Below, one piece after another: positions 45,972 through 59,058 of a DNA stretch of 64,000 nt; the stretch's first letter is position 1, and each line of letters starts with the position of its first letter. The position numbers were made by a program, and so were the translations under genes. The notes beneath the pieces are model-generated. The model did no database searches, was not told the origin of the DNA, and saw nothing but the letters and a program-made list of their open reading frames with translations. This DNA is from an uncultured delta proteobacterium. Lineage in GTDB: Bacteria > Desulfobacterota > Binatia > Bin18. The DNA lies in NCBI GenBank assembly GCA_963733195.1, contig CAVTCR010000081.1, positions 64,001 to 128,000 on the forward strand, read 5' to 3'.

Positions 45972-47916
45972 TTACCAAAGCGTTGTGGTATCGAGGACAT
46001 GAACGTGTCCGGCATGTTCAGTGACTGTCTCGTACATGTGTTGGGTTCCGCCGAGGCCGTCTCCACCTTTACGGTTCCACAGACAAAGGAAGTGCAGTCG
46101 TTCCGGCCCCCACGACAGTGCGGTGTATAACTGCCATAGATTGTTACGCGCGAACGCATTGACACCTTTGGGGAGTGGGCCAAGCTCATCTGGCATAACC
46201 AGCAGTTTGGTCTTTTCATGTTTTTTGACGGCGTAAAAACGCTCGCGCCAGTTGTCGCCGGCGAAATTGACCGATTCTTGAAGAAACTCCGGCTCATCAA
46301 AGGGAATACGTACTTCCAGTCGTAAGCCGCGCGTCAGGCATGCCTCAGCGAACAGCAAGTCACCACCGCATGCGCCACCACAGAGGGCAAGGTCTTCTGC
46401 TCCAGCACCAAGTGCTTCGAGTTTGGCGAGAATCGCCCATGTGGCGATGGATTCCTTCTCCGCAGGAAAGCGGGGAGTTGGACGATCCGGTCGCGTCAAT
46501 CATATGCCCACTGAAGAGAAATACGCGCTGCGGCTTCCAGCGTTCTTGTGGAGCTTCGAGTTTCTTGAGCTCGCGCTCAAGAATCTTCAATCCGGCTTCG
46601 ACTTCTACGAGGCGGAACCCGAGGTCACGCAGTAGGAGTAACTGTTGGTACGAAGAATCAAGTGCGAACCAATCCTTCTCGGCCACTGCAACCGCGACTC
46701 GATACTGTCGCTCGACCTGTGCTTTATCAGCGGAGAGAACGTCGAGATCACCGAGCGTTACTCGTGCCCAGTAGTCTCTCGGAGTTTCAGTGAGTGCACT
46801 TTGTACTGCCCATCGGACTCCCCCTTCCAACGCACGCTGCTCGGGAGTCTGTTCCTCGTGAAGAAGTGTTTGCTTGAGGGTAAGAAGAGTAATCGCATTA
46901 ATACCGGCATAGTAGTTCTTCGGATCTTTGCGAAAACCGGTCATGTAGGCGTCGATTGCTTCATGAAGAAACCCCTCCTCGGCCAGTGCATCTTCTCGCA
47001 TTCGCTCGGGTGTTTTGCCCGAATCCCTCCACCTCATGACCCAATTCTCCTTCTCAATACGGCCCAGTAACGCCCAGCTTTCCGAATCCTCAGGGTACTC
47101 CTCAACAACCGCCTTGAGCCACGCTTTGGCTTCGTCATACTTTTTCAAACGTCCGAACAGGAGACCTTTCTGTCGACGACTTTCGAGATCAGTTAGATCG
47201 ATGTCCAATGCTTTCTGGTACTGGTGCAGTGCGTATGAAAACTGTCCGAGAGAAAGCAGAGCTTTTCCTGCTTTGCGACGTGCTTCAGGTTGGAGGAGGC
47301 GAGAAGGAGCTTCTTTGGTAAAGACGAGAATATCACCGGGGAGGTTTTTCCGCCGCGCGACTTCGATGCGACGTGCCCATCCATCATACGCTTCCCAAAA
47401 CTCTTTGGCCTCTTCCACTCGGAGTGATTTCCAATCTGGCTCCTGCAAGTAACGAAGCAGATGATAGACAGGACTGATCTTGCGTCCGTGCCATGACTGG
47501 ATCGTTTCAGTTGCAAACGTGGCTAACGCCTTTTTGTCGTCTTCCAGAGTTGCCGGATCGGGGACGCCATCTTTGATGTGATACCGGAAGGCACGATCGA
47601 CATAGACGTCGAACGGCATGTAGTCACGCTTACATTGAATTTGGATCACTCCGCGTGAGCGAAGTCCATGACGAACGCCTAACTCGTACCAGACGTTGGG
47701 GTTGTCGATTGACAAGTCTACAACCACCAGGTCGGCAAGCAGTAACTCTTGGAACATATCCGTGCGAATGTTCCCTGCCTGCTGTTCCTCATCGGCACGA
47801 AAGACGTTGAATCCAGCCGTTTCTAAGGCGGGTTTAATGTAATCCTTGTAGACCTTGTTAAAGTCGATGCCTTCTTTCGTGCCAAACGGCATAGCGACAA
47901 AAGCATGCAAGGTCAT
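45972..47916 (-). CDS. DRHyd/deoxyribosyltransferase-like + DUF4071 (MAP3K TRAF-binding-like) TPR + SLOG-like protein (frameshift near 46490)
   Basis: AFVAMPFG..RADE..DLSIDNPNVWYELGVRH; TPR region with YYAGINA, DYWARVTLGD; FLFSGHMID..PRFP..GGACGGDLLFAE..LWN..GDGLGGT. Confidence 0.85.
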
Positions 47917-47967
47917 TGCGTGTTCCTTATGTGGTTTGAAGACAGACGGTAGCTATGTCTTTTTTCC

Positions 47968-50790
47968 TTAGGTCTCGGAGAGGGAACATGTCTGGAGATA
48001 CTCCGTAGATCCTACGTACTTCTGCCACTCCTCGTTGGTGAGATTCCGGTGCAGGCGCTCGCATACCTCGCGTACCGCATCCTCTCGTCGCCACAGCCAA
48101 CGAAATTCGACGTTCTCCCAATTGGCGGTAATCACGTACTTGCCGTCGGGACTAAAAGCGACGGTTGCGACTCCGGCATCGTGGCGTAAGCGGGTGACTT
48201 CCTGAAAACCAGGCATTTCCCACACTCGTGCAATTTTGTCCGAACCAGCAGTGGCCAAATATTTCCCGTCAGGACTAAAGGCGAGCGCAGTGACGGTTTC
48301 TTCACGGTGGGGATGGGGACTGGTCACAACCTGTCGCGTCTCCAGGTCCCAAATGCGGATCGTTTTATCCCATCCCGCAGAGGCGAACTGTGTGCCATCA
48401 GGGCTAAAGGCGATTGCCGCTGCACCTTCCTTATGTAACAGGAAGGCGCGCTCTTTCACCGTTGACGTGTCCCAGATACGGATGGTTTCATCATCCCAAC
48501 CAGCGGTTGCGAATTGTTTGCCGTCGGCACTGAAGGTCAAGGCAGCGACTCCGCCTTCATGCGGAATGATTGTTTGGTGCTGCGGATTGCGGGCTTCCCA
48601 CGCCCGTGTGATCTTGTCCCAGCCCGCCGTAACTAGATACTTACCGTTAGGGCTGAATGCGATAGCTGCTACTCCACTGGGGTGAACCATCCGAGCCAGC
48701 GGCTGGCAGTCCGGGCGGCGGCAACGGGCTACCTGCCACACCGCGATCGTGGTATCCCACCCCACAGTCGCCAGATAGGTGCCGTCACTGTTGAAAGCGA
48801 GTGCAGCGACTCCGTGAGCATGCCGCATCGTGGCGATCTCTTGCTTGCTGTCCTGTTCCCAAATGCGGATCGTCGAATCGTCATCGGCCGTGGCAAGGTA
48901 TTTCCCATCTGCACTGAGGGAGACCGCAGCTACGCGTGGCATATGCGTGAATGTGGCGATCATACGCCCCGTGCCCGACTCCCAGAGCAGAGCGGCAGGA
49001 TCATCACTCGCAGAAATAATGGACTGACCATCGGGACTAAAGGCTGCCGCAGTGACCCCACTGTTGTGGGTCAGGCGGACGCTCTCTTTCGGCGAGGCAA
49101 TCTCCCATACACGAGCCGTCTGGTCATAACTTCCAGTGACAATCTGCCGGGAATCACTGCGGAAGGAAACGGCGATGACCCCCCCTTCATGCGGAAGCTG
49201 GGCAATCTCCCGTCCGCTCGCACGTTGCCAAATCCGGGCCGTGTTGTCCCACCCGGCAGTGGCTAAGAAGTTTCCATCCGGGCTAAAGCTGAGGGCGGTC
49301 ACCCCACCTCGGTGTGAAACGTGGGCAATCTGTTCGCTGTTGGCGACTTTCCAGATGCGCACCAGTGGGTCATAGGTGGCCGTGCCAAGGAGTGCACCAT
49401 CCGGACTAAAGGCAACCGCAGTCACTCCTTCCTTGTGTGGCAGTCTTTTAATCTCGCGACAACTGACAAGATCCCAGATACGGACGGTTTTGTCCCAACT
49501 GCCTGAGGCGAGGTAGCGACTATCATGGCTGAATGCCAGACTGGTACTGCCTTTGTCGTGCATGCCACGGAGGATCTCACGGTTAGTATTGTATTCCCAC
49601 ACACGAACGGTTCCGTCCCAGCTTGCGGTGGCCAGGTACTTACCATTGGGGCTGAAGCTGATCGCTGTGATTCCTTCTTCGCGAGCCATCGGCGAGATCT
49701 CCTGGCCTGTCGTGATGATCCACACATGCGCGTGACCAGCCCAATCGACTGTAGCCAGATACTTACTATCAGGACTAAAAGCCATAGCCGTGATCCCGCT
49801 CTGGTGTGAGAGCAGGGAGACGGGTTGCTGATTGGCGACATTCCAGATGCGGACAACACAAGAATATCCAGCCGTGGCAATGAACTGGCCATTGGGACTG
49901 AATGCAACAGAGGTGATGCCCACCTTCGCAGTTGCGCAGGGCAGCAGTACTGTTCCCTGTAAGACTGCCTGATCAGATTCTAGAGAAGGTGAAAGTTTGA
50001 TGGCGGTGGCAGCTAGCAGTTCTCGGAGTGAGGACAATTCAGGGCGGCTTTTCAACGCCTCAACTTGCAATGCGAGTTGCCGGGCGAGGACGACTTTCGT
50101 CTGCGAGCGGGCGTATTGCCATTGGATCAACGCGATTACAGCCAATGCCGCAACAATTCCAAGGCCAGACGTGGCGATACTCAGCCAGACCCCTTTGCTT
50201 TTGGTAGCCGCGCGGCGACTGGCGATAATATACTGAGTTTGCAGTGGTGTCGGTTGTGGATCTTTTTTGTCGGCTTGAGTCAGCCACTGTTCCGCTTCGC
50301 GTAGCTCACGCCCACGCACGAGCAGGCTGTGTTCCTGTCCTTTACGATTCCACTCCTCGGCTTTGATTAACCAGCGTGTATGGGTATGCACCCACTCCGG
50401 GTCGACGTTGAGGACCTCTACGAGTGCCGTAAAGGCGCTGGAGAAATCATCCGTAGCACGGAAAAACTGCCACTGGCGTGCCGCAAGCGGTTGCGGGATC
50501 GTTTTCTCGTCAACCTCGCGATAATAGATCGGCACGATACGTTTATGGTGTTCAACCGCGTACGCAAGCTCCTGCTGACAGTACGCTGAACTCAATGCCT
50601 CCGGACTGATAACGAAGAGGAACGCTTCAGCTTCTTCGATGGCAGTGCGAATCCGTGGCCAGAACTCTTCCCCAGCGTAGAGGTCGTCGAGATCGACCCA
50701 CGTCTCGCGATTTTGAGCGGTGAAGGTATCCTGGAGCTTCTGTACAAAGTCCTTATCTTCACGGGCATAGGAAATGAAAACAGCGGCCAT
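47968..50790 (-). CDS. TIR domain - TM helix - WD40 repeat protein (about 15 repeats)
   Basis: VFISYARED, WVD, FVISP, CQQEL; TM GVWLSIATSGLGIVAALAVIALIQW; repeated V.A.AFSPDG..LATA.WD...RIW. Confidence 0.93.
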   Translation of the reverse strand: MAAVFISYAREDKDFVQKLQDTFTAQNRETWVDLDDLYAGEEFWPRIRTAIEEAEAFLFVISPEALSSAYCQQELAYAVEHHKRIVPIYYREVDEKTIPQPLAARQWQFFRATDDFSSAFTALVEVLNVDPEWVHTHTRWLIKAEEWNRKGQEHSLLVRGRELREAEQWLTQADKKDPQPTPLQTQYIIASRRAATKSKGVWLSIATSGLGIVAALAVIALIQWQYARSQTKVVLARQLALQVEALKSRPELSSLRELLAATAIKLSPSLESDQAVLQGTVLLPCATAKVGITSVAFSPNGQFIATAGYSCVVRIWNVANQQPVSLLSHQSGITAMAFSPDSKYLATVDWAGHAHVWIITTGQEISPMAREEGITAISFSPNGKYLATASWDGTVRVWEYNTNREILRGMHDKGSTSLAFSHDSRYLASGSWDKTVRIWDLVSCREIKRLPHKEGVTAVAFSPDGALLGTATYDPLVRIWKVANSEQIAHVSHRGGVTALSFSPDGNFLATAGWDNTARIWQRASGREIAQLPHEGGVIAVSFRSDSRQIVTGSYDQTARVWEIASPKESVRLTHNSGVTAAAFSPDGQSIISASDDPAALLWESGTGRMIATFTHMPRVAAVSLSADGKYLATADDDSTIRIWEQDSKQEIATMRHAHGVAALAFNSDGTYLATVGWDTTIAVWQVARCRRPDCQPLARMVHPSGVAAIAFSPNGKYLVTAGWDKITRAWEARNPQHQTIIPHEGGVAALTFSADGKQFATAGWDDETIRIWDTSTVKERAFLLHKEGAAAIAFSPDGTQFASAGWDKTIRIWDLETRQVVTSPHPHREETVTALAFSPDGKYLATAGSDKIARVWEMPGFQEVTRLRHDAGVATVAFSPDGKYVITANWENVEFRWLWRREDAVREVCERLHRNLTNEEWQKYVGSTEYLQTCSLSET

Positions 50791-51202: not shown

Positions 51203-54200
51203 CTAGACGCTAGACTCTAGACTATCGAGTAGCGCTTTCGCCTCTTGCAAGTCTTTCGTGTCGAATCCTTCAGTAAACCAGTTGTAGACCTCGGATAACA
51301 TCTGTGTAGCTTCGTGGAGCGTGATGTGCGTGGATATCTTTCGTGCTGCGTATCTGCTTGCTGTTGTCGTAATCGGACCAGGCTCATCGTGGCGCGGAGT
51401 TCCAGCGATTTGGCTTGTTGTTTTTGCGCGATCTCGATAGCTTTGAGGAAACACGCTTCGGCGTCTTCTTGGGGGGCGGGGGTCAGGGGGCGGGGATCGG
51501 TAACTTTTGCCCTTTGTTTTTCTTCTTTTTCTCTACTGACTACTGACTGCTGACTACTGACTACTGTTTCCTGACTTTTGCCCTTTGCCTTTTGATTTCC
51601 TTGGACTCCAGACTCTAGACTCTGGACTCTAGACTGGGCGAGCGTTAGCTCGCCGCGCAGCCGATACAGCTCCGCCTCGTAGAAACGCTCGCCGGTTTTG
51701 TCCACCACCGTCAGCGCCTCGGCGAGTGCGGCCAGCCCTTCCTCTGTCTGCCCCGCTTTCCCATACGCCTCGGCCAGCAGGACAAGATAATAGGATTGAA
51801 ATAGACCTGCCCCTATGGCTTCGTGGGTGGCCAGTCCTTGGCGGATCTGGCTAATCCCCTCTGCGACTCTGTCCCTGCTCGGCTCAGCGCCCAGCCCTGC
51901 AGGACAGCCCCTTGCCCTAACCACATTGGAAATCCTTGCTCGCGCGCGAGGGTGATTGCTGCCTCGGCCCACTCTTGGGTCAGGGGTCTGTCCCGGCGGA
52001 GCTGATGCAACAGGGCAGCATAAACCCGGGCGGCGGCCAAGCTGTATGGATGAGACCGCTCTTCGGCCAGCGTACGCGCTGCATTGCTCTTCTGGAGCGC
52101 CTGGTCCGGATAGCCCAGATGCCACAGGACCCCGGCTGCATAGGAGAGGCCAAAGACCCCCGGCTCCATGCCGTAGAGGAACACAGGGGAGTGGTGGCGC
52201 TGAGAGTCATACAGGGTCATGCCCTGCTCCAGGTGCGCCTGGGCAGCGCCGAACTCACCCAGATGGAATAAGGTGCCGCCCAGCGCCCGATATGCCTCCA
52301 CGAGCAAGGCCGGGTCTTGCTCCCGCTGGGCCAGGCCCAGGAGTTGCTCCCCGAGCTCTCGCGCCGTGAGAAACTCGCCCCGCAACATGATGAAACGTCC
52401 GCAGCCCAAAGAGGACCCGGAAGAGCTGGCGGGTCTCCCCGACCTGCTGGCACAGCTCCCGTGCGCGGGTATAGGCGGCCATCACTTCCGGTGAGGCAAA
52501 ACTTCTGGTGGCTTGTAACGGCACGCCCAGAGTGAGGTGCAGTGTGAGTTCTTGTTGGGCGCGCTCGCGGGTGTCTGGCAACGTCTTGAGGAGATCTAAG
52601 GCGGTCGTGAAGATGACTGATCGCTTCTGCATTGGCCGACCGCTGGGCCGCCTGTTGCCCCGCCAGGTGCAGATACTCGACGGCTTTTTGCGTGTTGCCA
52701 CTGCGCGTGTAGTGATGCGCCAGCTCACTGTAATGGTCGTCCAAGGTGGCCCGATACAGTGCTTCAATCGCCTGCGCGGTCTGCTCATGCAGGACTTTAC
52801 GCCGCTCCTGCAGCACCGTGCCATAAGCGACCTCTTGGGTCAGGGCGTGCTTAAAAATATATTCCACCTCGGGAAAGGCGGGCTGCTCGTAGAGAAATTC
52901 TTTGTGTTGGAGGGAGGCAAGGAGGCGATACAGTTCGTCTTCTGGCTGGGTGATAACCTGGCGGATCAAGACTCAAGGGAACTCACGACCGATGACCGCA
53001 AGCTGTTGAAGAATGCTTCTCTTCTGGCGCGAGGCGGTCGATGCGGGCGGCGAGGATGCCTTGGACGGTGGGGGGAGATGGAATCTTGGGGTAGGGCGCG
53101 ACCCGGCCGGTCTGACCCGCTCGCCCAAACACGCCTTGCTCGCGTAACTCTTGGACCATCTCTTCCATGAAAAACGGGCGTGCCTTCGGTCTTCTCCAGG
53201 ATGAGCTGTTTCAAGGGTTGTAGGGGCGCAGCATGCTGCGCCCCTACGGTGTCGCCCAACAAGCACATCAAGAAATTCTTCGGCTTCCGCTTTACCAAAT
53301 GGCGCCAGCCGTAGCTGCGTGTAATACGTCTTCTGCCCCCATTCGGACCGATACTCAGGACGGTAGTTCACCAGCAGCAGGACCTTGGCCGAGGCTACAC
53401 TCTCACTCAGCACGTCGAGAAAGCCTTGCGTCTCGCTGTCAATCCAATGCAAGTCTTCAAAGATGAGCATCAGGGGCTGGTTAAGACTCTCCCGCAGGAA
53501 CAACCTTCTTGAGCGCTTCAAAGGTGCGTCGCCGCCGTATCTGCGGGTCCATCTGCTGAAGACTTGATTGCGGGTCTTCAATCCCCAGCAGAGCAAAGAG
53601 ATAGGGCAAGGTGTCTTCCAGACTGCGATCGAGTGTGAGCACTTTGCCCGTGATTTTCTCCCGCCGCTTCCGTTCGTCGTCCTAGAGGCTGATGTCGAAG
53701 TAGCTCTTGAGCAGTTCAATGAGCGGCAGATAGGGCGAGGCTTTGCCATGCGAGACTGAGTAGGCTTCCAGCACCAGGCAGCCACGTTGCGAGGTGAGCT
53801 TGAACTCGTAGAACAAGCGAGACTTGCCCTAGCCCCGGCTCGCCCATCACCCCGACAATCTGTCCGTGTCCGGCTTTCGCTTGCTCAAGGCCCGCTGCAT
53901 CTGCTCCAGTTCGCTCTGCCGTCCCACAAACCGGGTCAGCCCGCGGCGCGCCGAGACTTGTAAGCGCGTGCGCAGTGGTCCCGCGCCGAGCACTTCGTAG
54001 ACATGGAGCGGCTCTTCCACGCCTTTGATCTGCGTCTGCGCCCAGATCCTTGAACTCAAAATAGCCGTCGGTCAGCTTGTGCGTGTAGGCAGTGACGAGA
54101 ATCGACCCGGGCGCGGCCAGCTGTTCCATGCGCGCTGCTAAGATTCGTCGAATGTCCGACTGGGACATAGTCAGTATGCAAATCATCTTTGCGGATCGAC

Positions 54201-54889
54201 CGCAGAACGACTTCGCCCGTGTTAATCCCCACCCGCATCAACAGCGGCGGATAGCCTTTTAGTCGGAGCTTGTCGGCATACCGCCGCATCTCGTCTTGCA
54301 TGCGCAGCGCGGCATAGAGTGCCCGTTGGGGATGATCTTCATGGGCAAGTGGGTGCACCAAACAAGGCAAAGATGCCATCGCCCAAGGCTTGCGCCACAT
54401 AACCTTCATAGCGATGCACCGCGTCCATCATCAGCTGCAACGCCGGATCGATAATCGCCCGCGCTTCTTCGGGATCAAGCCCTTCGATGAGCGCCGTCGA
54501 GCCTTTGAGGTCGGCGAACAGGGCCGTGATCGTCTTACGCTCGCCCTCCGTAGACCCCCGTGCTTCTAACGCTGCCTGCTCCGCGCGGATCCGTTCGGCC
54601 AGATGGGGTGGCGTGTAGGTCACGGGGGAGAGTTCGGGTTCGGGGTTCGGAGTTCGGCGTCTTGACTTGGAACCTGGAACTTTGAACTTGGAACTGGCGC
54701 AGCCCCTGCCCACACCAGCACCTTGCCATCTTCATCCCGGGCCACGTGTTCCGCATCAATGAGTTCTGCCGCGACATCGGCAACGTAATCGTCATCCAGC
54801 GTGAACTCACGCTTCAGCGCTCGGTACGTCACCCGGCCTTTGTCCCGGACCTTCCCCCGCACCTGGTCCAATATCTCACGAAATGTCAT
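51203..54889 (-). CDS. Class III nucleotide cyclase - STAND AAA ATPase - TPR protein, copy 1 (wHTH-like N-terminus; many frameshifts)
   Basis: MTFREILDQV..YRALKREF; ERKTITALFADLKGS, GDG; GEPGLG; FEDLHW; YIFKHALTQEVAY; FYEAELYRLRGEL; WFTEGFDTKDL. Confidence 0.88.
53220..53247. repeat. Perfect 28-bp GTAG REP palindrome inside cyclase copy 1
   Basis: GTAGGGGCGCAGCATGCTGCGCCCCTAC, translated as VGAQHAAPLQ. Confidence 0.9.
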
Positions 54890-54904
54890 TCTTGTTTCTC
54901 TACG

Positions 54905-55291
54905 CTACCAAAGAACCGTCACCCCATAGTCAGCAAAAATAGCCTCAATGGTCACAATGGGCACGCTCTGCAATTTTGCCTGTGCGATCAACATCCGGTC
55001 AAAAGGATCCCGATGCGGGCCAGGCAAACTGCCCGCTAAGAGCGCATGATCGACGGAGACCTCAAGGGCGGTAAAGCGCGCCTTTCGTAGGTACAGCGGA
55101 AATTGACTGACGATGTCCCCAGCCTCTGGTAATTTGCCAATCCGATACTTGGTCGCGATTTCCCAAGCCGAAGCTGCACTCACGAGGATCTCGTTCTCCG
55201 GTGCAGCAATGGTCGTCCGCGCTCGGTGTGAGAGTTTGGGATCGTCGAAGAGCCACCAGAGGAGTGTATGGGTATCGAGCAAGCACCTCAT
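54905..55291 (-). CDS. vapC: VapC PIN-domain toxin
   Basis: LLDTHTLLWW, SAASAWEIATK, HRDPFDRMLIAQA. Confidence 0.93.
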   Translation of the reverse strand: MRCLLDTHTLLWWLFDDPKLSHRARTTIAAPENEILVSAASAWEIATKYRIGKLPEAGDIVSQFPLYLRKARFTALEVSVDHALLAGSLPGPHRDPFDRMLIAQAKLQSVPIVTIEAIFADYGVTVLW

Positions 55292-55512
55292 CGTTCCCAC
55301 GCCTTTAGTTCCTCCTCGGGGAGTGGCTCAAAAAACGCATCGGTGACTTTCCCGTGCGCAATACCAGGGATGCGCGGCGAGCGCTCTTCGACTGGCAGCA
55401 AGCGCGCGACCGGCTGGTTATTTTCGGTGATGATGACCTCCTCATGAGGCTGAAGTGTATGGATCAAGTCCAAGAGTTTGGTCTGAGCCTCTTCAATAGT
55501 CACAGTTGACAT
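55288..55512 (-). CDS. Phd/YefM-DUF2281-like antitoxin
   Basis: VTIEEAQTKL..EEVIIT..PVARL..FFEPLPEEELKAWE; overlaps vapC start. Confidence 0.88.
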   Translation of the reverse strand: MSTVTIEEAQTKLLDLIHTLQPHEEVIITENNQPVARLLPVEERSPRIPGIAHGKVTDAFFEPLPEEELKAWER

Positions 55513-55576
55513 CACAGACTCCTGTTGTGGTTGATGACCGTTTGTACAAACGGCTCCTTTTCTTTTTTACTTTACC

Positions 55577-58500
55577 TTAGGAGAGACGTTCCAGCAGCGC
55601 CTTCGCCTCTTGCAAGTCTTTCGTGTCGAACCCTTCGGTGAACCAGTTGTAGACCTCGGATAACATGCCGGTGTGCTTCGTGCTCTGCTTGCCTTGTTGT
55701 TGCCACAGCCGGACCAGGCTCATCGCCGCCCGCAGTTCCAGCGATTTGGCTTGCTGGTGCTGGGCAATCTCGATGGCTTTGTGAAAACACGCTTCGGCTT
55801 CGGCTTGGGGGTCGGGGGTCAGGGGTCGGGGATCGGTGACTTTGAACTTTGAACCTTGAACTTTGAACTGTTGCAGCGTCAGCTCCCCTTTCAGCCGATA
55901 CAGCTCGGCCTCGTAGATACTGCTCCCCAGTTTTGTGCACCGTCAGCCAGCGCCTCGGCCAGCACCGCAAGCCCTTCCTCGGCTTGTCCACTTTTTCCGT
56001 ACCCTTCGGCTAGCAAGGCAAGATAATACGGACGTGCCCACTCTGCCCCGGTGGCCCGGTAGGCTGACAAGCCCTGACGCATCTGGTCAATTCCTTCCTC
56101 TACCTGTCCCTGCTCAGCCAGCGCCCAACCCCACAGGACAGTCCCCCACGCCAACCAGAACGGAAACCCTTGTTCAGTGGAGAGGGTCATGGCGGCCTCA
56201 GCTCGCTCTTTAACTGCTTGACTCTCTTGGCGGTGCTGATGGAGCACAGCAGCGAAGTCCAGAGCAAGAGCCAGGTTAAAGGGATGAGACATCTCCTGAG
56301 CCAGGGTGAGTGCCTCGTGGCTCCTTTGCAGCGCCTGCTCCGGATAGCCCAGAGACCACAGGGCCCAGGCTGCATAGGATGGGCAAAACACCCTGGAGGC
56401 TATGCCATAGATGAAGGTATGAGAGCGGTGCTGCTGAGAGTCGTAGAAGGCAATGCCTTGCTCGAAGTGCGCTCGGGCAGCGACCAACTCGCCAAGGTTG
56501 AACAAGGAGGCCCCCAAGGCACCATGCGCCTCCAAGAGGAGGATCGGATCTTGGGCACTCTGGGCCAGGCTGAGGAGCTGCTCCCCTAGTTCACGGGCCG
56601 TGTGTGTCTCTGCCCGCAGAGAATAAAACCTCCGCAGTCCTACCAGCACCGAGAAGAGCTTCGGGGTTTCCCCTACCTGGTGGCACAGCTCAAGCGCCCG
56701 GGTGTAGGTTTTACCTACTTCCGGTGCCGCAAGGCCTTTGGTGGCCATCCACACCGGACCGAGAGTGGTCTGTAGGAGCAGCTCTTGGTAGGTACGTTCG
56801 GGAGTGTCCGGGAGCGTGGTGAGCAACTCTAAGGCGGTCGTCAGATAATGGATCGCTTCCACATTGGCTGAGCGTTGGACAGTCTGTTGCCCGGCAAGTT
56901 GGAGGTAGTCAATTGCCTTCTCGCGTATTGCCGCTCCGAGTGTAGTGATGCGCCAGGTCACTGTAGTGCTCGTCGAGGTTAGTGCTATAGAGTCCTTCAA
57001 TAGCTTGCGCCGTGCGCTCGTGCAGGACTTTGCGCCGCTCCTGGAGCACCGAGTTGTATGCCACTTCCTGGGTGAGAGCATGCTTGAAGATGTATTCGAC
57101 TTCAGGAAACGCCGGCTGTTCGTAGAGGAATTCTTTGTGCTGAAGGGAGGCAAGGAGGCGATACAATTCGTCTTCGGGCTGGGTGATAACCTGGCGGATC
57201 AGGCTCACAGGGAACTCGCGACCGATCACCGCGAGCTGTTGAAGGAGCTGTTTTTCGGCAGGTCGAGTCGGTCAATGCGGGCGGCGAGTACGCCTTGCAC
57301 GGTCGTCGGAATATGTAGGTCGGTGGGTAGGGGCACGGCGCGCCGTGCCCCTGCAGCGTCGCGTACGAGCACCCCCTGCTCCACCAGCTCCTGGACGATC
57401 TCTTCCATGAAGAACGGCGTGCCTTCGGTCTTGTCGAGGATGAGTTGCTTGAGGGCTTGTAGAGACGTTGCATGCAACGTCTCTACAGTTGCGCCCAACA
57501 GCACGTCGAGAAATTCTTCCGCCTCGGCTTTGCCAAACGGCGACAACCGCAGCTGCGTGTAATAGGTCTTACTCCCCCACTCGTGGCGATACTCCGGCCG
57601 ATAGTTCGTAAGCAGTAAGAGCTTGGCGCTAGCTACACTTTCACTCAGGATATCGAGAAAGCCCTGCGTCTCATTGTCAATCCAGTGCAAATCCTCAAAG
57701 ATGAGGATCAACGGCTGATTAAGACTCTCGCGCAGGAAGAGCTGCTTGAGGGCTGCAAACGTCCGCTGCCGCCGAATCTGCGGGTCCATCTGCTGAAGTG
57801 GCGACGGTTGTTCTTCCACTCCGAGCAGGGCAAAGAGGTAGGGGAGAATGTCTTCGAGACTGCGGTCGAGCGTGAGTACTTTCCCGGTGACCTTCTCTCG
57901 TCGTTTGCGTTCGTCGTCCTGCGCCTGGATGTCAAAGTAACTCTTGAGCAGTTCGACCACCGGGAGATACGGCGAGGCCTTGCCATGCGAGACAGAGTAA
58001 GCTTCAAGCACCAGGCAGCCAGCTTGTGAGGTAAGCTTGAACTCATACAACAACCGTGACTTGCCTAGTCCAGGCTCGCCCATCACACCTACAATTTGTC
58101 CATGTCCAACTTTGACCTGCTCTAGTGCACGGCGCATTTGTTCCATCTCGCTCTGGCGCCCGACAAAGCGGGTCAGTCCGCGTCTGGCCGCCACTTGTAA
58201 CCGCGTACGCAGCGGTCCCGCACCGAGCACTTCGTAGACATTGAGCGACTCTTCCACGCCTTTGATCTGCGTCTGGCCCAAATCCTTGAACGCGAAGTAA
58301 CCGTCCGTGAGGCGGCGAGTTTGCTCGGTGAGCAGAATAGAACCAGGAGCGGCGAGTTGTTCCATCCGTGCCGCCAAATTGGTCGAGTGACCCACGGGAA
58401 CATAGTCGGCGTGCAGATCGTCTTTGCGAATCGACCGCACCACCACTTCGCCCGTATTGATGCCCACCCGCATCAACAAGGGCGGATAACCTTTTGTCCG

Positions 58501-59058
58501 CAACGTGTCCGCATACCGGCGCATCTCTTCCTGCATGCGCAGCGCAGCATAGAGCGCTCGCTGGGGATGATCTTCATGGGCAATAGGTGCACCGAACAGG
58601 GCAAAGATGCCATCGCCGAGCACTTGGGCCACATAGCCTTCATAGCGATGCACGGCATCCATCATGAGCTGGAGCGCAGGATCGATAATCGCCCGCGCTT
58701 CTTCGGGATCGAGGCCTTCAATCAACGCCGTCGAGCCTTTGAGATCGGCAAACAGTGCCGTGATCGTCTTACGTTCACCGTCCGTCGCTCCCCGTGCTTC
58801 CAGCGCCGCCTGCTCGGCGCGTATACGTTCCGCGAGGTGGGGAGGTGTGTAGCTCGCAGGAGGCGCACTCACAGCAAAAGGAGAAGACTGAACGGGTGGC
58901 GGTCGCCCGGCGAGCGGCGCGGCGCATTTCCCGCAGAACGCAAAGCCGGACGGGTTCTCAAAGCCACACTGAGAACAGCGTGGTATCAGCGAGGCCGCAC
59001 ACTTGCCACAGAAGTTCATGCCTTCGGGATTTTCAAACCCACAGCTTGCACAGCGCAT
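55577..59058 (-). CDS. Double zinc ribbon - class III cyclase - STAND AAA ATPase - TPR protein, copy 2 (frameshifts near 57255, 56915, 55940, 55670)
   Basis: CASC..FCGKC..CSQC..FCGKC; FADLKGS, GDG, RVGINTG, NLAAR; GEPGLGKS; FEDLHW; TPR tail ..WFTEGFDTKDLQEAKALLERLS*. Confidence 0.92.
57327..57354. repeat. 28-bp GTAG REP palindrome (1 mismatch) inside cyclase copy 2
   Basis: GTAGGGGCACGGCGCGCCGTGCCCCTGC, translated as AGARRAVPLP. Confidence 0.85.
57458..57487. repeat. Perfect 30-bp palindrome (28-bp GTAG REP core) inside cyclase copy 2
   Basis: TGTAGAGACGTTGCATGCAACGTCTCTACA, translated as VETLHATSLQ. Confidence 0.9.

Follow-up and report, generated by a model that had tools for sequence, protein, structure and literature searches.

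Few bacterial repeats are as common, or as poorly understood, as REPs, which normally lie between genes. To our knowledge, how they move and how one class changes into another are still open questions. In Rickettsia, palindromic elements made known by Ogata et al. in 2000 are reportedly selfish palindromes that sit in frame in protein genes and are tolerated in the protein. GTAG-tagged REPs are described, in the relevant passages of Di Nocera, De Gregorio and Rocco, 2013 (PMC3733652), as mostly extragenic, downstream of ORFs and RAYT-linked; some occur inside genes, where they are read through as extra residues. These intragenic insertions are scattered over unrelated genes, many of them of replication and repair, which was taken as arguing against functional constraint. 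The same passages place the R. conorii intragenic repeats RPE-4 and RPE-6 in a CGTC-tagged superfamily, not a GTAG one. In the parts of Nunvar, Licha and Schneider, 2013 (PMC3686654) that deal with it, the "orthoswitch" designates different REP classes at the same genomic position in related genomes; its mechanism is stated to be unknown, and the authors read it as mutation of the flanking REPs. Finally, the REPIN-RAYT systems are presented by Bertels and Rainey, 2011 (PMC3116915), as populations of GTAG hairpins that are inherited vertically and linked to a Y1 transposase present in one copy.

The DNA analysed here, a 64,000-nucleotide stretch of a Binatia-like genome ("the window"), harbors palindromes that are GTAG-tagged REPs: 28-bp hairpins with a 5' GTAG, belonging to a dispersed, multi-copy and mainly extragenic family. 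Like the elements of PMC3733652, they are short, mostly extragenic, in some cases read through within genes, and RAYT-linked; unlike those described in its passages, nearly all coding copies lie in one expanded family (plus a RAYT), at recurrent codon positions that each accept many classes. The host phylum is also absent from the phyla listed in those passages. The orthoswitch shares with this locus a position common to different REP classes, but in the passages on it concerns only REPs flanking orthologous RAYT genes of Pseudomonas and Stenotrophomonas, without coding sequence or paralog families. REPIN-RAYT systems likewise combine vertically inherited GTAG hairpins with a Y1 transposase, and the ~61-bp units found in one slot (slot B, see below) resemble inverted REP doublets; as far as their description goes, they differ in that copies number here in the tens, not hundreds, and that the most frequent unit is one perfect palindrome, in which GTAG and CTAC pair with each other. 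The Rickettsia elements are, similarly, selfish palindromes tolerated in frame in coding genes, but carry a CGTC tag (RPE-4, RPE-6) and are not, in the passages treating them, concentrated in one paralog family. The present units have GTAG/CTAC feet in place of the CGTC tag and RPE consensus: they behave like RPEs, being in frame and tolerated, yet are not members. What is new is the presence of different REP classes at fixed in-frame slots of one expanded family, a variation on a documented theme that falls short of a demonstrated diversification machinery. No account of fixed REP slots in one expanded gene family was found in the literature searched. An earlier, sequence-only reading of this DNA, which knew of no description at all, went too far, intragenic GTAG REPs (PMC3733652) and the switching of REP classes (PMC3686654) being documented in the passages cited above.

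The host genes are two tandem minus-strand paralogs, both frameshifted (Table 1), which blastn aligns over 3005 nt at 76.6% identity, with 33 gap openings. The tblastn match of copy 1 is split into at least five pieces, and copy 2 shows a single frame break between its two open frames. In copy 2, Pfam identifies a double zinc ribbon, Guanylate_cyc (5e-21) and AAA_16 (3.6e-21), the latter two above cut-off, with a Walker A motif GEPGLGKS; its second ORF yields TPR_2, TPR_MalT and TPR_14 matches, all weak and below cut-offs. The host gene is, therefore, a P-loop NTPase of AAA_16 type fused to a class III cyclase (Guanylate_cyc). This cyclase-STAND-TPR family accounts, by tblastn matches, for 5.13% of the 6.9-Mb genome. 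Among the loci of this genome, an open frame of at least 900 aa is kept in 5 of the 43 close and 15 of the 75 distant ones; in other assemblies, 38 of 42 family match ranges are stop-free and the family genes carrying the units are intact.

Table 1. Host genes and slot contents in the window (positions 1 to 64,000).
Feature	Position	Strand	Description
Copy 1	51219..54688	-	Class III cyclase - AAA_16 STAND - TPR family pseudogene, several frames
Copy 2	55584..59058	-	Same family as copy 1; ORFs 57226-59058 (610 aa) and 55891-57153 (420 aa)
Slot A, copy 1	53778..53801	-	Short native form KLTSQRGC, without REP
Slot A, copy 2	58015..58038	-	Short native form KLTSQAGC, without REP
Slot B occupant, copy 1	53220..53247	.	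GTAGGGGCGCAGCATGCTGCGCCCCTAC, perfect 28-bp palindrome and GTAG REP, core class GCAGCATGCTGC, most frequent slot-B class
Slot B occupant, copy 2	57459..57486	.	GTAGAGACGTTGCATGCAACGTCTCTAC, perfect 28-bp palindrome and GTAG REP, GAGAC feet, core GTTGCATGCAAC, private class
Slot C, copy 1	53091..53118	.	Decayed remnant of a GACCGGCCGGTC-class unit (class assigned by reading the letters)
Slot C occupant, copy 2	57327..57354	.	GTAGGGGCACGGCGCGCCGTGCCCCTGC, 28-bp REP, core ACGGCGCGCCGT, one altered foot base, translated AGARRAVPL

The two slot-B palindromes differ at positions 5, 7, 10, 11, 18, 19, 22 and 24, which form four mirror-image, compensatory pairs. Translated from the minus strand, the sequence around the unit is LLGDT-VGAQHAAPLQ-PLKQLILEKTEGT in copy 1 and LLGAT-VETLHATSLQ-ALKQLILDKTEG in copy 2, which places the units at the same codon position. 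The VGAQHAAPLQ frame of copy 1 is conceptual only: owing to a frameshift a short way upstream, RRGAACCAPT is what the long open frame encodes at this point. DNA folding of the three good units gives -15.5, -13.1 and -12.8 kcal/mol (z-scores -5.3, -7.0 and -3.0), the first two values being those of the perfect palindromes; the decayed unit of copy 1 folds no better than shuffles (z +0.36). The sequence-only reading had claimed 28-bp palindromes whose eight differences are four compensatory pairs, a shared codon position, and a second homologous slot filled in copy 2 and degraded in copy 1; the sequences confirm all three, with the conceptual frame used for copy 1. In slot A, other paralogs carry a REP at exactly the position that is native in copy 2.

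A census of 163 genes of the family, drawn from this assembly and from other Binatia-like ones, shows how general these slots are. Slot A, which follows the P-loop helix, holds 20 single palindromes and 135 short forms; slot B, an inter-helix loop, 47 single palindromes, 61 long inserts, 34 short forms and 21 others; and slot C, in a predicted winged-helix hairpin, 35 single palindromes, 73 sites scored "short" and 48 others. Two more slots, D and E, are found in distant family members. At least three loop positions of the family are thus taken up by a short native loop in some genes and by an insert in others. The inserts range from REP hairpins, of many classes, and double hairpins to a further hairpin family and nested elements; slot B in particular hosts the double hairpins, about 61 bp long, as well as nested elements and a family of CCCCTCTCCC-type hairpins. 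The census bears out the earlier claim of fixed in-frame slots holding different REP classes in NLR-like (STAND) paralogs, and the short "empty" alleles, for which a search had been proposed, do exist. In an AF2 model, slot B is the loop between helices 510-521 and 534-543, with pLDDT <50. The slots sit in the NTPase, helical and winged-helix part, not in the TPR sensor. The encoded 9-10 residues (V-G-A-x-x-x-x-P-L) are loop filler, the peptides being dictated by the hairpin. Selfish hairpins can, accordingly, become long-lived loop parts of bacterial NLR-like proteins, which matters when such proteins are annotated or modelled. The family furthermore offers dozens of homologous, precisely alignable sites, with occupied, empty, swapped, nested and decayed states in one frame, and so allows direct tests of how REPs turn over and how RAYTs choose their targets.

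The same units populate the rest of the genome, in which 66 matches to GTAGRGRC-N6-20-GYCYCTAC are found on 44 of 87 contigs. Chance is ruled out as a source of the palindromes, since the 28-letter foot pattern has 43 genome matches, as compared with 0 for the reversed-pattern control, and 19 perfect 28-bp palindromes are present among 63 with arms of at least 10. The copy number is low relative to classical REP-rich genomes. Every counted unit carries GTAG on both strands; in contrast with classical REPs, this GTAG is paired with CTAC in the stem, which ends there in 57 of 66 units. The family tblastn matches contain 33 of the 66 strict copies (binomial P = 3.6e-25), and one further copy in an AAA_16 ORF brings those within the family to 34. 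About 29 strict copies occupy classic extragenic positions near gene ends; most of the 33 copies outside the family matches lie 4-70 bp past the ends of long ORFs in which Pfam finds ordinary domains. Of the 21 related genomes, 14 also have the foot pattern, and the core classes are the same across genera. Whether the palindromes recur elsewhere in the genome had been put forward as a decisive check: the genome has the 66 strict copies, the copy-1 28-mer recurs identically at two other sites, one of them within a RAYT gene, and the proposed match between slot classes and intergenic REPs holds, the same classes being extragenic near gene ends.

Four loci of the genome match the NF047646 RAYT profile. 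In the C26 RAYT gene (206 aa, with HUH and Y motifs), the copy-1 28-mer follows the HUH motif in frame, and a unit of class GACCGGCCGGTC lies 18 bp upstream. The C62 RAYT-like gene has ACGGCGC-class units on its flanks and one inside, the class of slot C in copy 2. These two candidate cognate genes, with slot classes both inside and beside them, reach 47 and 64 bits against an NCBIfam cut-off of 80; the two loci above the cut-off, one of them frameshifted, have none of these REPs nearby. The suggested RAYT association thus stands as regards slot classes in and beside RAYT-type genes, with the qualification that both genes fall short of the 80-bit cut-off. RAYT genes with slot-class REPs show the same architecture in genomes G009, G005, G010, G011, G015 and others. 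Ten of the 21 relatives possess this RAYT group, namely all 7 of those with at least 38 palindromes, as compared with 3 of the 14 others. No Y1 or RAYT match, and hence no diversifying enzyme linked to the target genes, was found within the window's contig range. One RAYT elsewhere in the genome adjoins a cyclase-domain ORF.

Taken together, the palindromes are probably REP-RAYT residents of loops, spread by duplication and conversion and sometimes overwritten from a genomic pool. These GTAG-tagged REPs of a system resident in this Binatia-like genome would have entered each loop rarely and anciently, where extra residues were tolerated. Filled genes would then have been amplified by duplication and mixed by gene conversion between paralogs, the resident hairpin being occasionally replaced by another REP class of the pool. 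The likeliest agent would be a RAYT working at the common GTAG/CTAC feet of the folded single strand, the alternative being a template switch between two hairpins whose feet are the same. From one replacement to the next, hairpins would decay by point mutation, at times with compensatory changes. Among the results that go against this reading, filled and short forms differ by +3, +6, +18 or +21 nt, never by 28 or 30, and a unit must therefore replace 7-22 native bases, which no simple insertion model predicts.

Much of the slot pattern is vertical, and in-place drift is common, since 59 of 102 units are imperfect and the L073 and L209 units differ at 4 of 28 positions, about the flank rate. 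It could be proposed that each slot was entered once and that all classes arose in place, through point mutations symmetrised by hairpin selection or by intrastrand template-switch correction of quasi-palindromes, without other REP copies. The ordinary within-class drift of L073/L209, the imperfect units with their 65 foot+core types, and the largely slot-specific distribution of classes in this genome all fit such a history, as does the copy-2 class: allowing at most one mismatch, it is present in 2 of 55 family genomes, solely in slot B of homologs of one gene lineage, and a single compensatory pair separates it from an extragenic GAGAC-foot REP of the same genome. This purely in-place history is unlikely, however, given that identical 28-mers occupy non-homologous sites (a RAYT gene, an extragenic site, slot B here and slot A of L025), that in eight slot-B genes the unit is 28/28 identical while the 180 flanking nt average 74% identity, and that ~61-bp double hairpins, CCCCTCTCCC-type hairpins and nested elements are underivable from a 28-mer by substitution.

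Unit similarity does not, moreover, follow flank identity, with Spearman coefficients of -0.005 (slot B) and -0.017 (slot C), although flank identity spans a narrow range (0.7-0.85) and the flat relation could reflect a star-like radiation. On the strength of the identical 28-mers amid 74% flanks and of this flat relation, occupants appear to be overwritten from a pool, besides decaying in place; the earlier contention that REPs are exchanged, beyond mere drift, agrees with these data. It applies unevenly to the two paralogs: the copy-1 unit is a common pool class, whereas the copy-2 class is private and vertically inherited. No recent swap was caught among the family genes compared, the nearest relatives of copy 2 being 78-88% identical, with none above 88% found and the contigs compared yielding fragments only.

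Another possibility is that each slot/class combination arose once and that conversion or recombination tracts, comprising slot and flanks, merely shuffled them between paralogs, without REP-to-REP replacement. Pairwise difference profiles do reveal clear mosaic blocks between family members, and the element type tracks adjacent codons (IP with GGTTCGCGAACC in 3/3 genes, ES with the SPLP-type insert, VS/IS/TS with double hairpins). In L031 and L032, the closest different-class pair, flanks are 90.6% identical and cores differ at 10 of 12 positions; as read from the alignment, flank differences crowd beside the slot, a pattern that a gene-conversion tract from another paralog fits as well as a precise hairpin swap does. 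Shuffling as the sole process is nonetheless quite improbable. At least five classes share the same immediate 5' context ACGACC, one class occupies slots A, B and C of a single assembly, and the RAYT gene and extragenic sites also harbor the same class, which paralog conversion cannot yield. One class is found in different slots of the same assembly in 5 assemblies; cross-slot class sharing within a genome amounts to 7.0% versus 4.2% (permutation p = 0.057, a weak test). The idea that the slots serve as recombination handles is not upheld, the correlation of adjacent-window distance matrices showing no specific dip at slots and the mosaic breakpoints observed lying elsewhere.

In an extended version of overwriting from the pool, the slots would be landing sites addressed by their hairpins: RAYT would recognise the folded GTAG...CTAC in ssDNA, cut both feet and swap the 28-nt body in frame, rewriting surface loops of STAND sensors and of RAYT itself, a process that the host may have co-opted for an NLR-like repertoire; we give this version little credence. 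Were exchange both enzyme-driven and host-exploited, it would represent a new route to varying sensor proteins, which goes beyond present evidence. The domesticated diversification first proposed, according to which RAYT-driven swapping of cassettes at fixed slots lets the cell vary the surface loops of NLR-like sensors, is very improbable, even though REPs are strongly concentrated in one STAND family, at fixed loop positions, in genes that are intact in other assemblies, and although one RAYT gene adjoins a cyclase-domain ORF. No evidence of the cell exploiting slot turnover was seen in the genes surveyed. The idea of adaptive diversification falters on slots located outside the TPR sensor, on a RAYT gene that is itself slotted, and on the broken state of most copies here, few close or distant loci retaining the long frame; the peptides are, besides, set by the hairpin, the window has no RAYT gene, and genome G009 contains 56 REPs but only 2 family genes.

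The window harbors two perfect 28-bp palindromes with GTAG/CTAC feet, one in each of two tandem minus-strand paralogs (copy 1, 51219-54688, and copy 2, 55584-59058) that are 76.6% identical over 3 kb. In a direct reading, their eight differing positions form four mirror pairs. Copy 1 reads LLGDT-VGAQHAAPLQ-PLKQLILEKTEGT and copy 2 LLGAT-VETLHATSLQ-ALKQLILDKTEG, hence the codon position is the same in both. As DNA hairpins, the two units fold much more stably than shuffled controls, with z values of -5.3 and -7.0, respectively. This pairing of palindromes at one codon position of two paralogs, first claimed in a sequence-only reading of this DNA, is real and far beyond chance; the second homologous slot claimed ~130 bp away is also real, with a 28-mer in copy 2 and a decayed unit in copy 1. 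That reading needs one amendment, as copy 1 is a pseudogene. Its alignment with copy 2 breaks up over several frames, and in its long open frame the palindrome is translated in a different frame. Copy 2 has a single cut, leaving frames of 610 and 420 aa, and encodes a class III cyclase domain (Guanylate_cyc, 5e-21) and an AAA_16 STAND NTPase domain (3.6e-21) together with a double zinc ribbon; its TPR matches are weak. One RNA-library contig (X12) spans the break in copy 2 with zero differences or gaps, which argues that the break is real rather than an assembly error, DNA carry-over in the library being possible.

Coordinates of the window features and of the RAYT genes of genome G000
Feature	Sequence	Coordinates	Description
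Palindrome, copy 1	window	53220-53247	perfect, 28 bp, GTAGGGGCGCAGCATGCTGCGCCCCTAC
Palindrome, copy 2	window	57459-57486	perfect, 28 bp, GTAGAGACGTTGCATGCAACGTCTCTAC
Second slot, copy 1	window	from 53091	decayed remnant, folding lost
Second slot, copy 2	window	57327-57354	28-mer, one foot base changed
Match to contig X12	window	57023-57263	
Other palindrome	window	55538-55553	perfect, 16 bp, CCGTTTGTACAAACGG; just downstream of copy 2, unrelated to GTAG units
Neighboring genes	window	46360-50790, 54905-55300	940-aa WD40-repeat protein; 518-aa TPR-S (TPR-sensor) protein; 131-aa PIN-domain ORF, the last between copies 1 and 2
RAYT gene, contig C26	L124	1147-1767	206 aa; HUH motif MPNHLHGIL and tyrosine motif
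RAYT gene, contig C62	L122	1435-2016	slot-C-class units on its flanks and one inside
RAYT gene, contig C57	L121	1444-1977	intact, 108 bits; a wider-family cyclase-domain ORF (2198-2866) lies head to head with it

Slots were extracted between conserved peptide anchors on both sides in 163 non-identical family genes from G000 (the genome containing the window), 79 genome-collection loci and 80 metagenome loci. Slot A follows GKSRLFxEF at the end of the P-loop helix; it keeps the short native form KLLSQSGC in 135 of the 163 genes and holds a single GTAG palindrome in 20. Slot B, between LLGxx and xLKQLIL, has a long insert in 61 genes, a single palindrome in 47, the short form in 34, and intermediates in 21. 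In slot C, between VLVRDx and PTDLHIP, 35 genes carry a single palindrome, 48 other forms, and 73 were scored as short, a count that includes a further GTAG class (GTAGGGTGGGTC...) missed by the search pattern. Distant members possess units at two more places, slot D (three genes) and slot E (two genes), the latter within the cyclase domain. The long inserts of slot B are of three kinds. Some are double hairpins of ~61 bp, enclosed between GTAG and CTAC and resembling inverted REP doublets. Others belong to a non-GTAG hairpin family, CCCCTCTCCC/GGGGAGAGGG, read as SPLPxGERxRVRG, and the third kind consists of nested combinations with one hairpin inside another; CCCCTCTCCC-loop-GGGGAGAGGG hairpins or nested elements are found in slot B of L011, L034, L041, L043, and other loci.

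In intact genes the units are always read GTA-GGG-GCx, and of 42 match ranges in other assemblies, 38 contain no stops. Filled forms exceed short ones by 3, 6, 18 or 21 nt, a difference of 28 or 30 nt being absent, and a REP unit stands in for 7-22 native bases of the slot. Copy 2 was modelled with AlphaFold2 from a 39-row alignment (mean pLDDT 74). Slot A falls in the loop that joins helix 333-343 to strand 349-353, and slot B separates helix 510-521 from helix 534-543, residues 524-530 having a pLDDT below 50; slot C is part of a beta hairpin of low confidence.

The family is hugely expanded in G000 (6.95 Mb, 87 contigs, 53.8% G+C), with 52 close and 85 more distant loci whose matches cover 5.13% of the genome. 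Only 5 of the 43 close loci, and 15 of the 75 distant interior ones, retain an open frame of at least 900 aa, whereas most family genes of other genomes have open frames of 1000-1200 aa. The broken state in G000 is due either to wholesale pseudogenisation or to an assembly problem confined to this family. Genome-wide assembly indels are an unlikely source, since open frames of at least 300 aa cover 52% of G000, an argument that applies to the genome as a whole and not to the repeats themselves.

The units are of a known kind, GTAG REPs with RAYT. The pattern GTAGRGRC-N6-20-GYCYCTAC has 66 matches in G000, and its fixed 28-letter form 43, versus none for the reversed pattern; 14 of 21 related genomes also contain the 28-letter form, and the same core classes recur from genus to genus. 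Half of the 66 units (33) fall inside family matches, with a binomial P of 3.6e-25 against the genome coverage of the family. Most of the 33 others lie 4-70 bp past the ends of long ORFs with ordinary domains (amidase, luciferase-like oxygenases, ClpB, release factor, and MetH, among others), which is the classic REP position. Among them, one is in an AAA_16 ORF and two belong with a RAYT gene; a further, ambiguous case falls within a ring-hydroxylase ORF, in its C-terminal tail. The class of the copy 1 unit has other copies in the genome. The related genome G009 harbors 56 REPs and only two family genes; none of 15 examined sites overlaps a family match, and most of these sites lie in gaps between long open frames, a call that is not firm given the many overlapping frames.

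A search of G000 with the NCBIfam RAYT model returns four loci. The RAYT gene of contig C26 contains the exact 28-mer of copy 1 in frame, read VGAQHAAPL, and has a GACCGGCCGGTC unit 18 bp upstream; the link to RAYTs suggested earlier is thus present for the copy 1 unit. The C26 palindromes might have been part of a decayed STAND gene, but this was ruled out, as they belong to the RAYT gene. No GTAG hairpin was found near the C57 RAYT gene. The RAYT genes of each genome (also at L129-L135 and L138) carry an in-frame REP at one shared position, directly behind the HUH motif; from genome to genome this REP changes in class and even in reading frame (VGAQHAAPL, VGAHSCAPL, RRGDRPVAPT, VETPRRGVST, and others). 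This RAYT group occurs in 10 of 21 relatives, namely in all seven genomes with at least 38 palindromes versus 3 of the 14 others; this is an association and not a test, the relatives not being independent. IS200-type TnpA loci were also considered as REP partners and rejected, no GTAG hairpins being seen near the six strong Y1_Tnp loci checked; L001, a Y1_Tnp locus, is typed as IS200.

How the occupants of the slots change can be read from units and flanks together. In slot B, the GCAGCATGCTGC unit is identical at 28/28 positions in eight genes, the 180 flanking aligned bases of which average 74% identity. Over all pairs, unit similarity and flank identity are uncorrelated in slots B and C (Spearman -0.005 and -0.017) and weakly correlated in slot A (0.30). 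Such shared 28-mers despite diverged flanks, together with identical units in a RAYT gene and at extragenic sites, do not arise from drift in place, and we infer an enzyme step in the exchange. Five assemblies have one class in different slots, and L013 has near-identical units in slots A, B and C; cross-slot class sharing within one assembly (7.0% versus 4.2%, permutation p = 0.057) is not significant, and REP classes in G000 are largely slot-specific. Drift in place is also common: only 43 of 102 units are perfect, foot and core together give 65 types, and the units of L073 and L209 differ at 4 of 28 positions within one class. With up to one mismatch allowed, the copy 2 class is confined to 2 of 55 family genomes. 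It always occupies slot B of a homolog, among them the closest homolog (85% amino-acid identity), which comes from another genus. It is therefore a private, vertically inherited class, and a single compensatory pair separates it from an extragenic unit on contig C2.

Gene conversion among paralogs is evident from mosaic blocks in pairwise comparison. The loci L031 and L032 have the closest flanks with different classes (90.6% identity, 10 of 12 core positions differing), and their flank differences crowd beside the slot, so that some apparent swaps may reflect conversion tracts and not an exact exchange of hairpins. Close orthologs that would display a recent swap were sought in same-genus DNA (best 78% identity), in metagenome contigs (best 88%), and in public sequencing runs (best run at most 26% of sampled words); contigs from these runs are short fragments, slots matched only as other paralogs or REPs, and no within-population variant is readable.

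The proposal that slots serve as recombination handles is not supported. Distance matrices from adjacent 90-column windows correlate at 0.41 for slot A and 0.36 for slot B; values elsewhere range over 0.27-0.48, without a dip specific to the slots, and the breakpoints seen in pairwise profiles lie away from the slots. An adaptive diversification system of NLR-like genes likewise finds no support, because the TPR part contains no units, the RAYT gene has the same kind of slot, G009 has its many REPs with so few family genes, and most G000 family loci lack a long open frame despite the frame coverage of the genome.

Di Nocera et al. 2013 (PMC3733652) reported in-frame GTAG REPs dispersed among unrelated genes, in contrast with their concentration here in a single expanded family of STAND genes. 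Nunvar et al. 2013 (PMC3686654) coined "orthoswitch" for orthologous RAYT genes that are flanked by different REP classes, and presented its mechanism as unknown. A search of the full main text of papers returned no account of recurrent slots in a paralog family or of REPs inside RAYT genes. What is new is that REPs concentrate in this family and occupy fixed loop positions there, in many classes, with nesting of elements and signs of overwriting.

The closest public relatives of the host gene are MAG records, mostly titled Candidatus Binatia or Deltaproteobacteria. For L034, L057, L061, L070, L080, L015, L021, and others, the MAG records of relatives are titled Klebsiella pneumoniae or uncultured Enterobacteriaceae; these titles look like mislabels, as the gene content groups with Binatia-like records.
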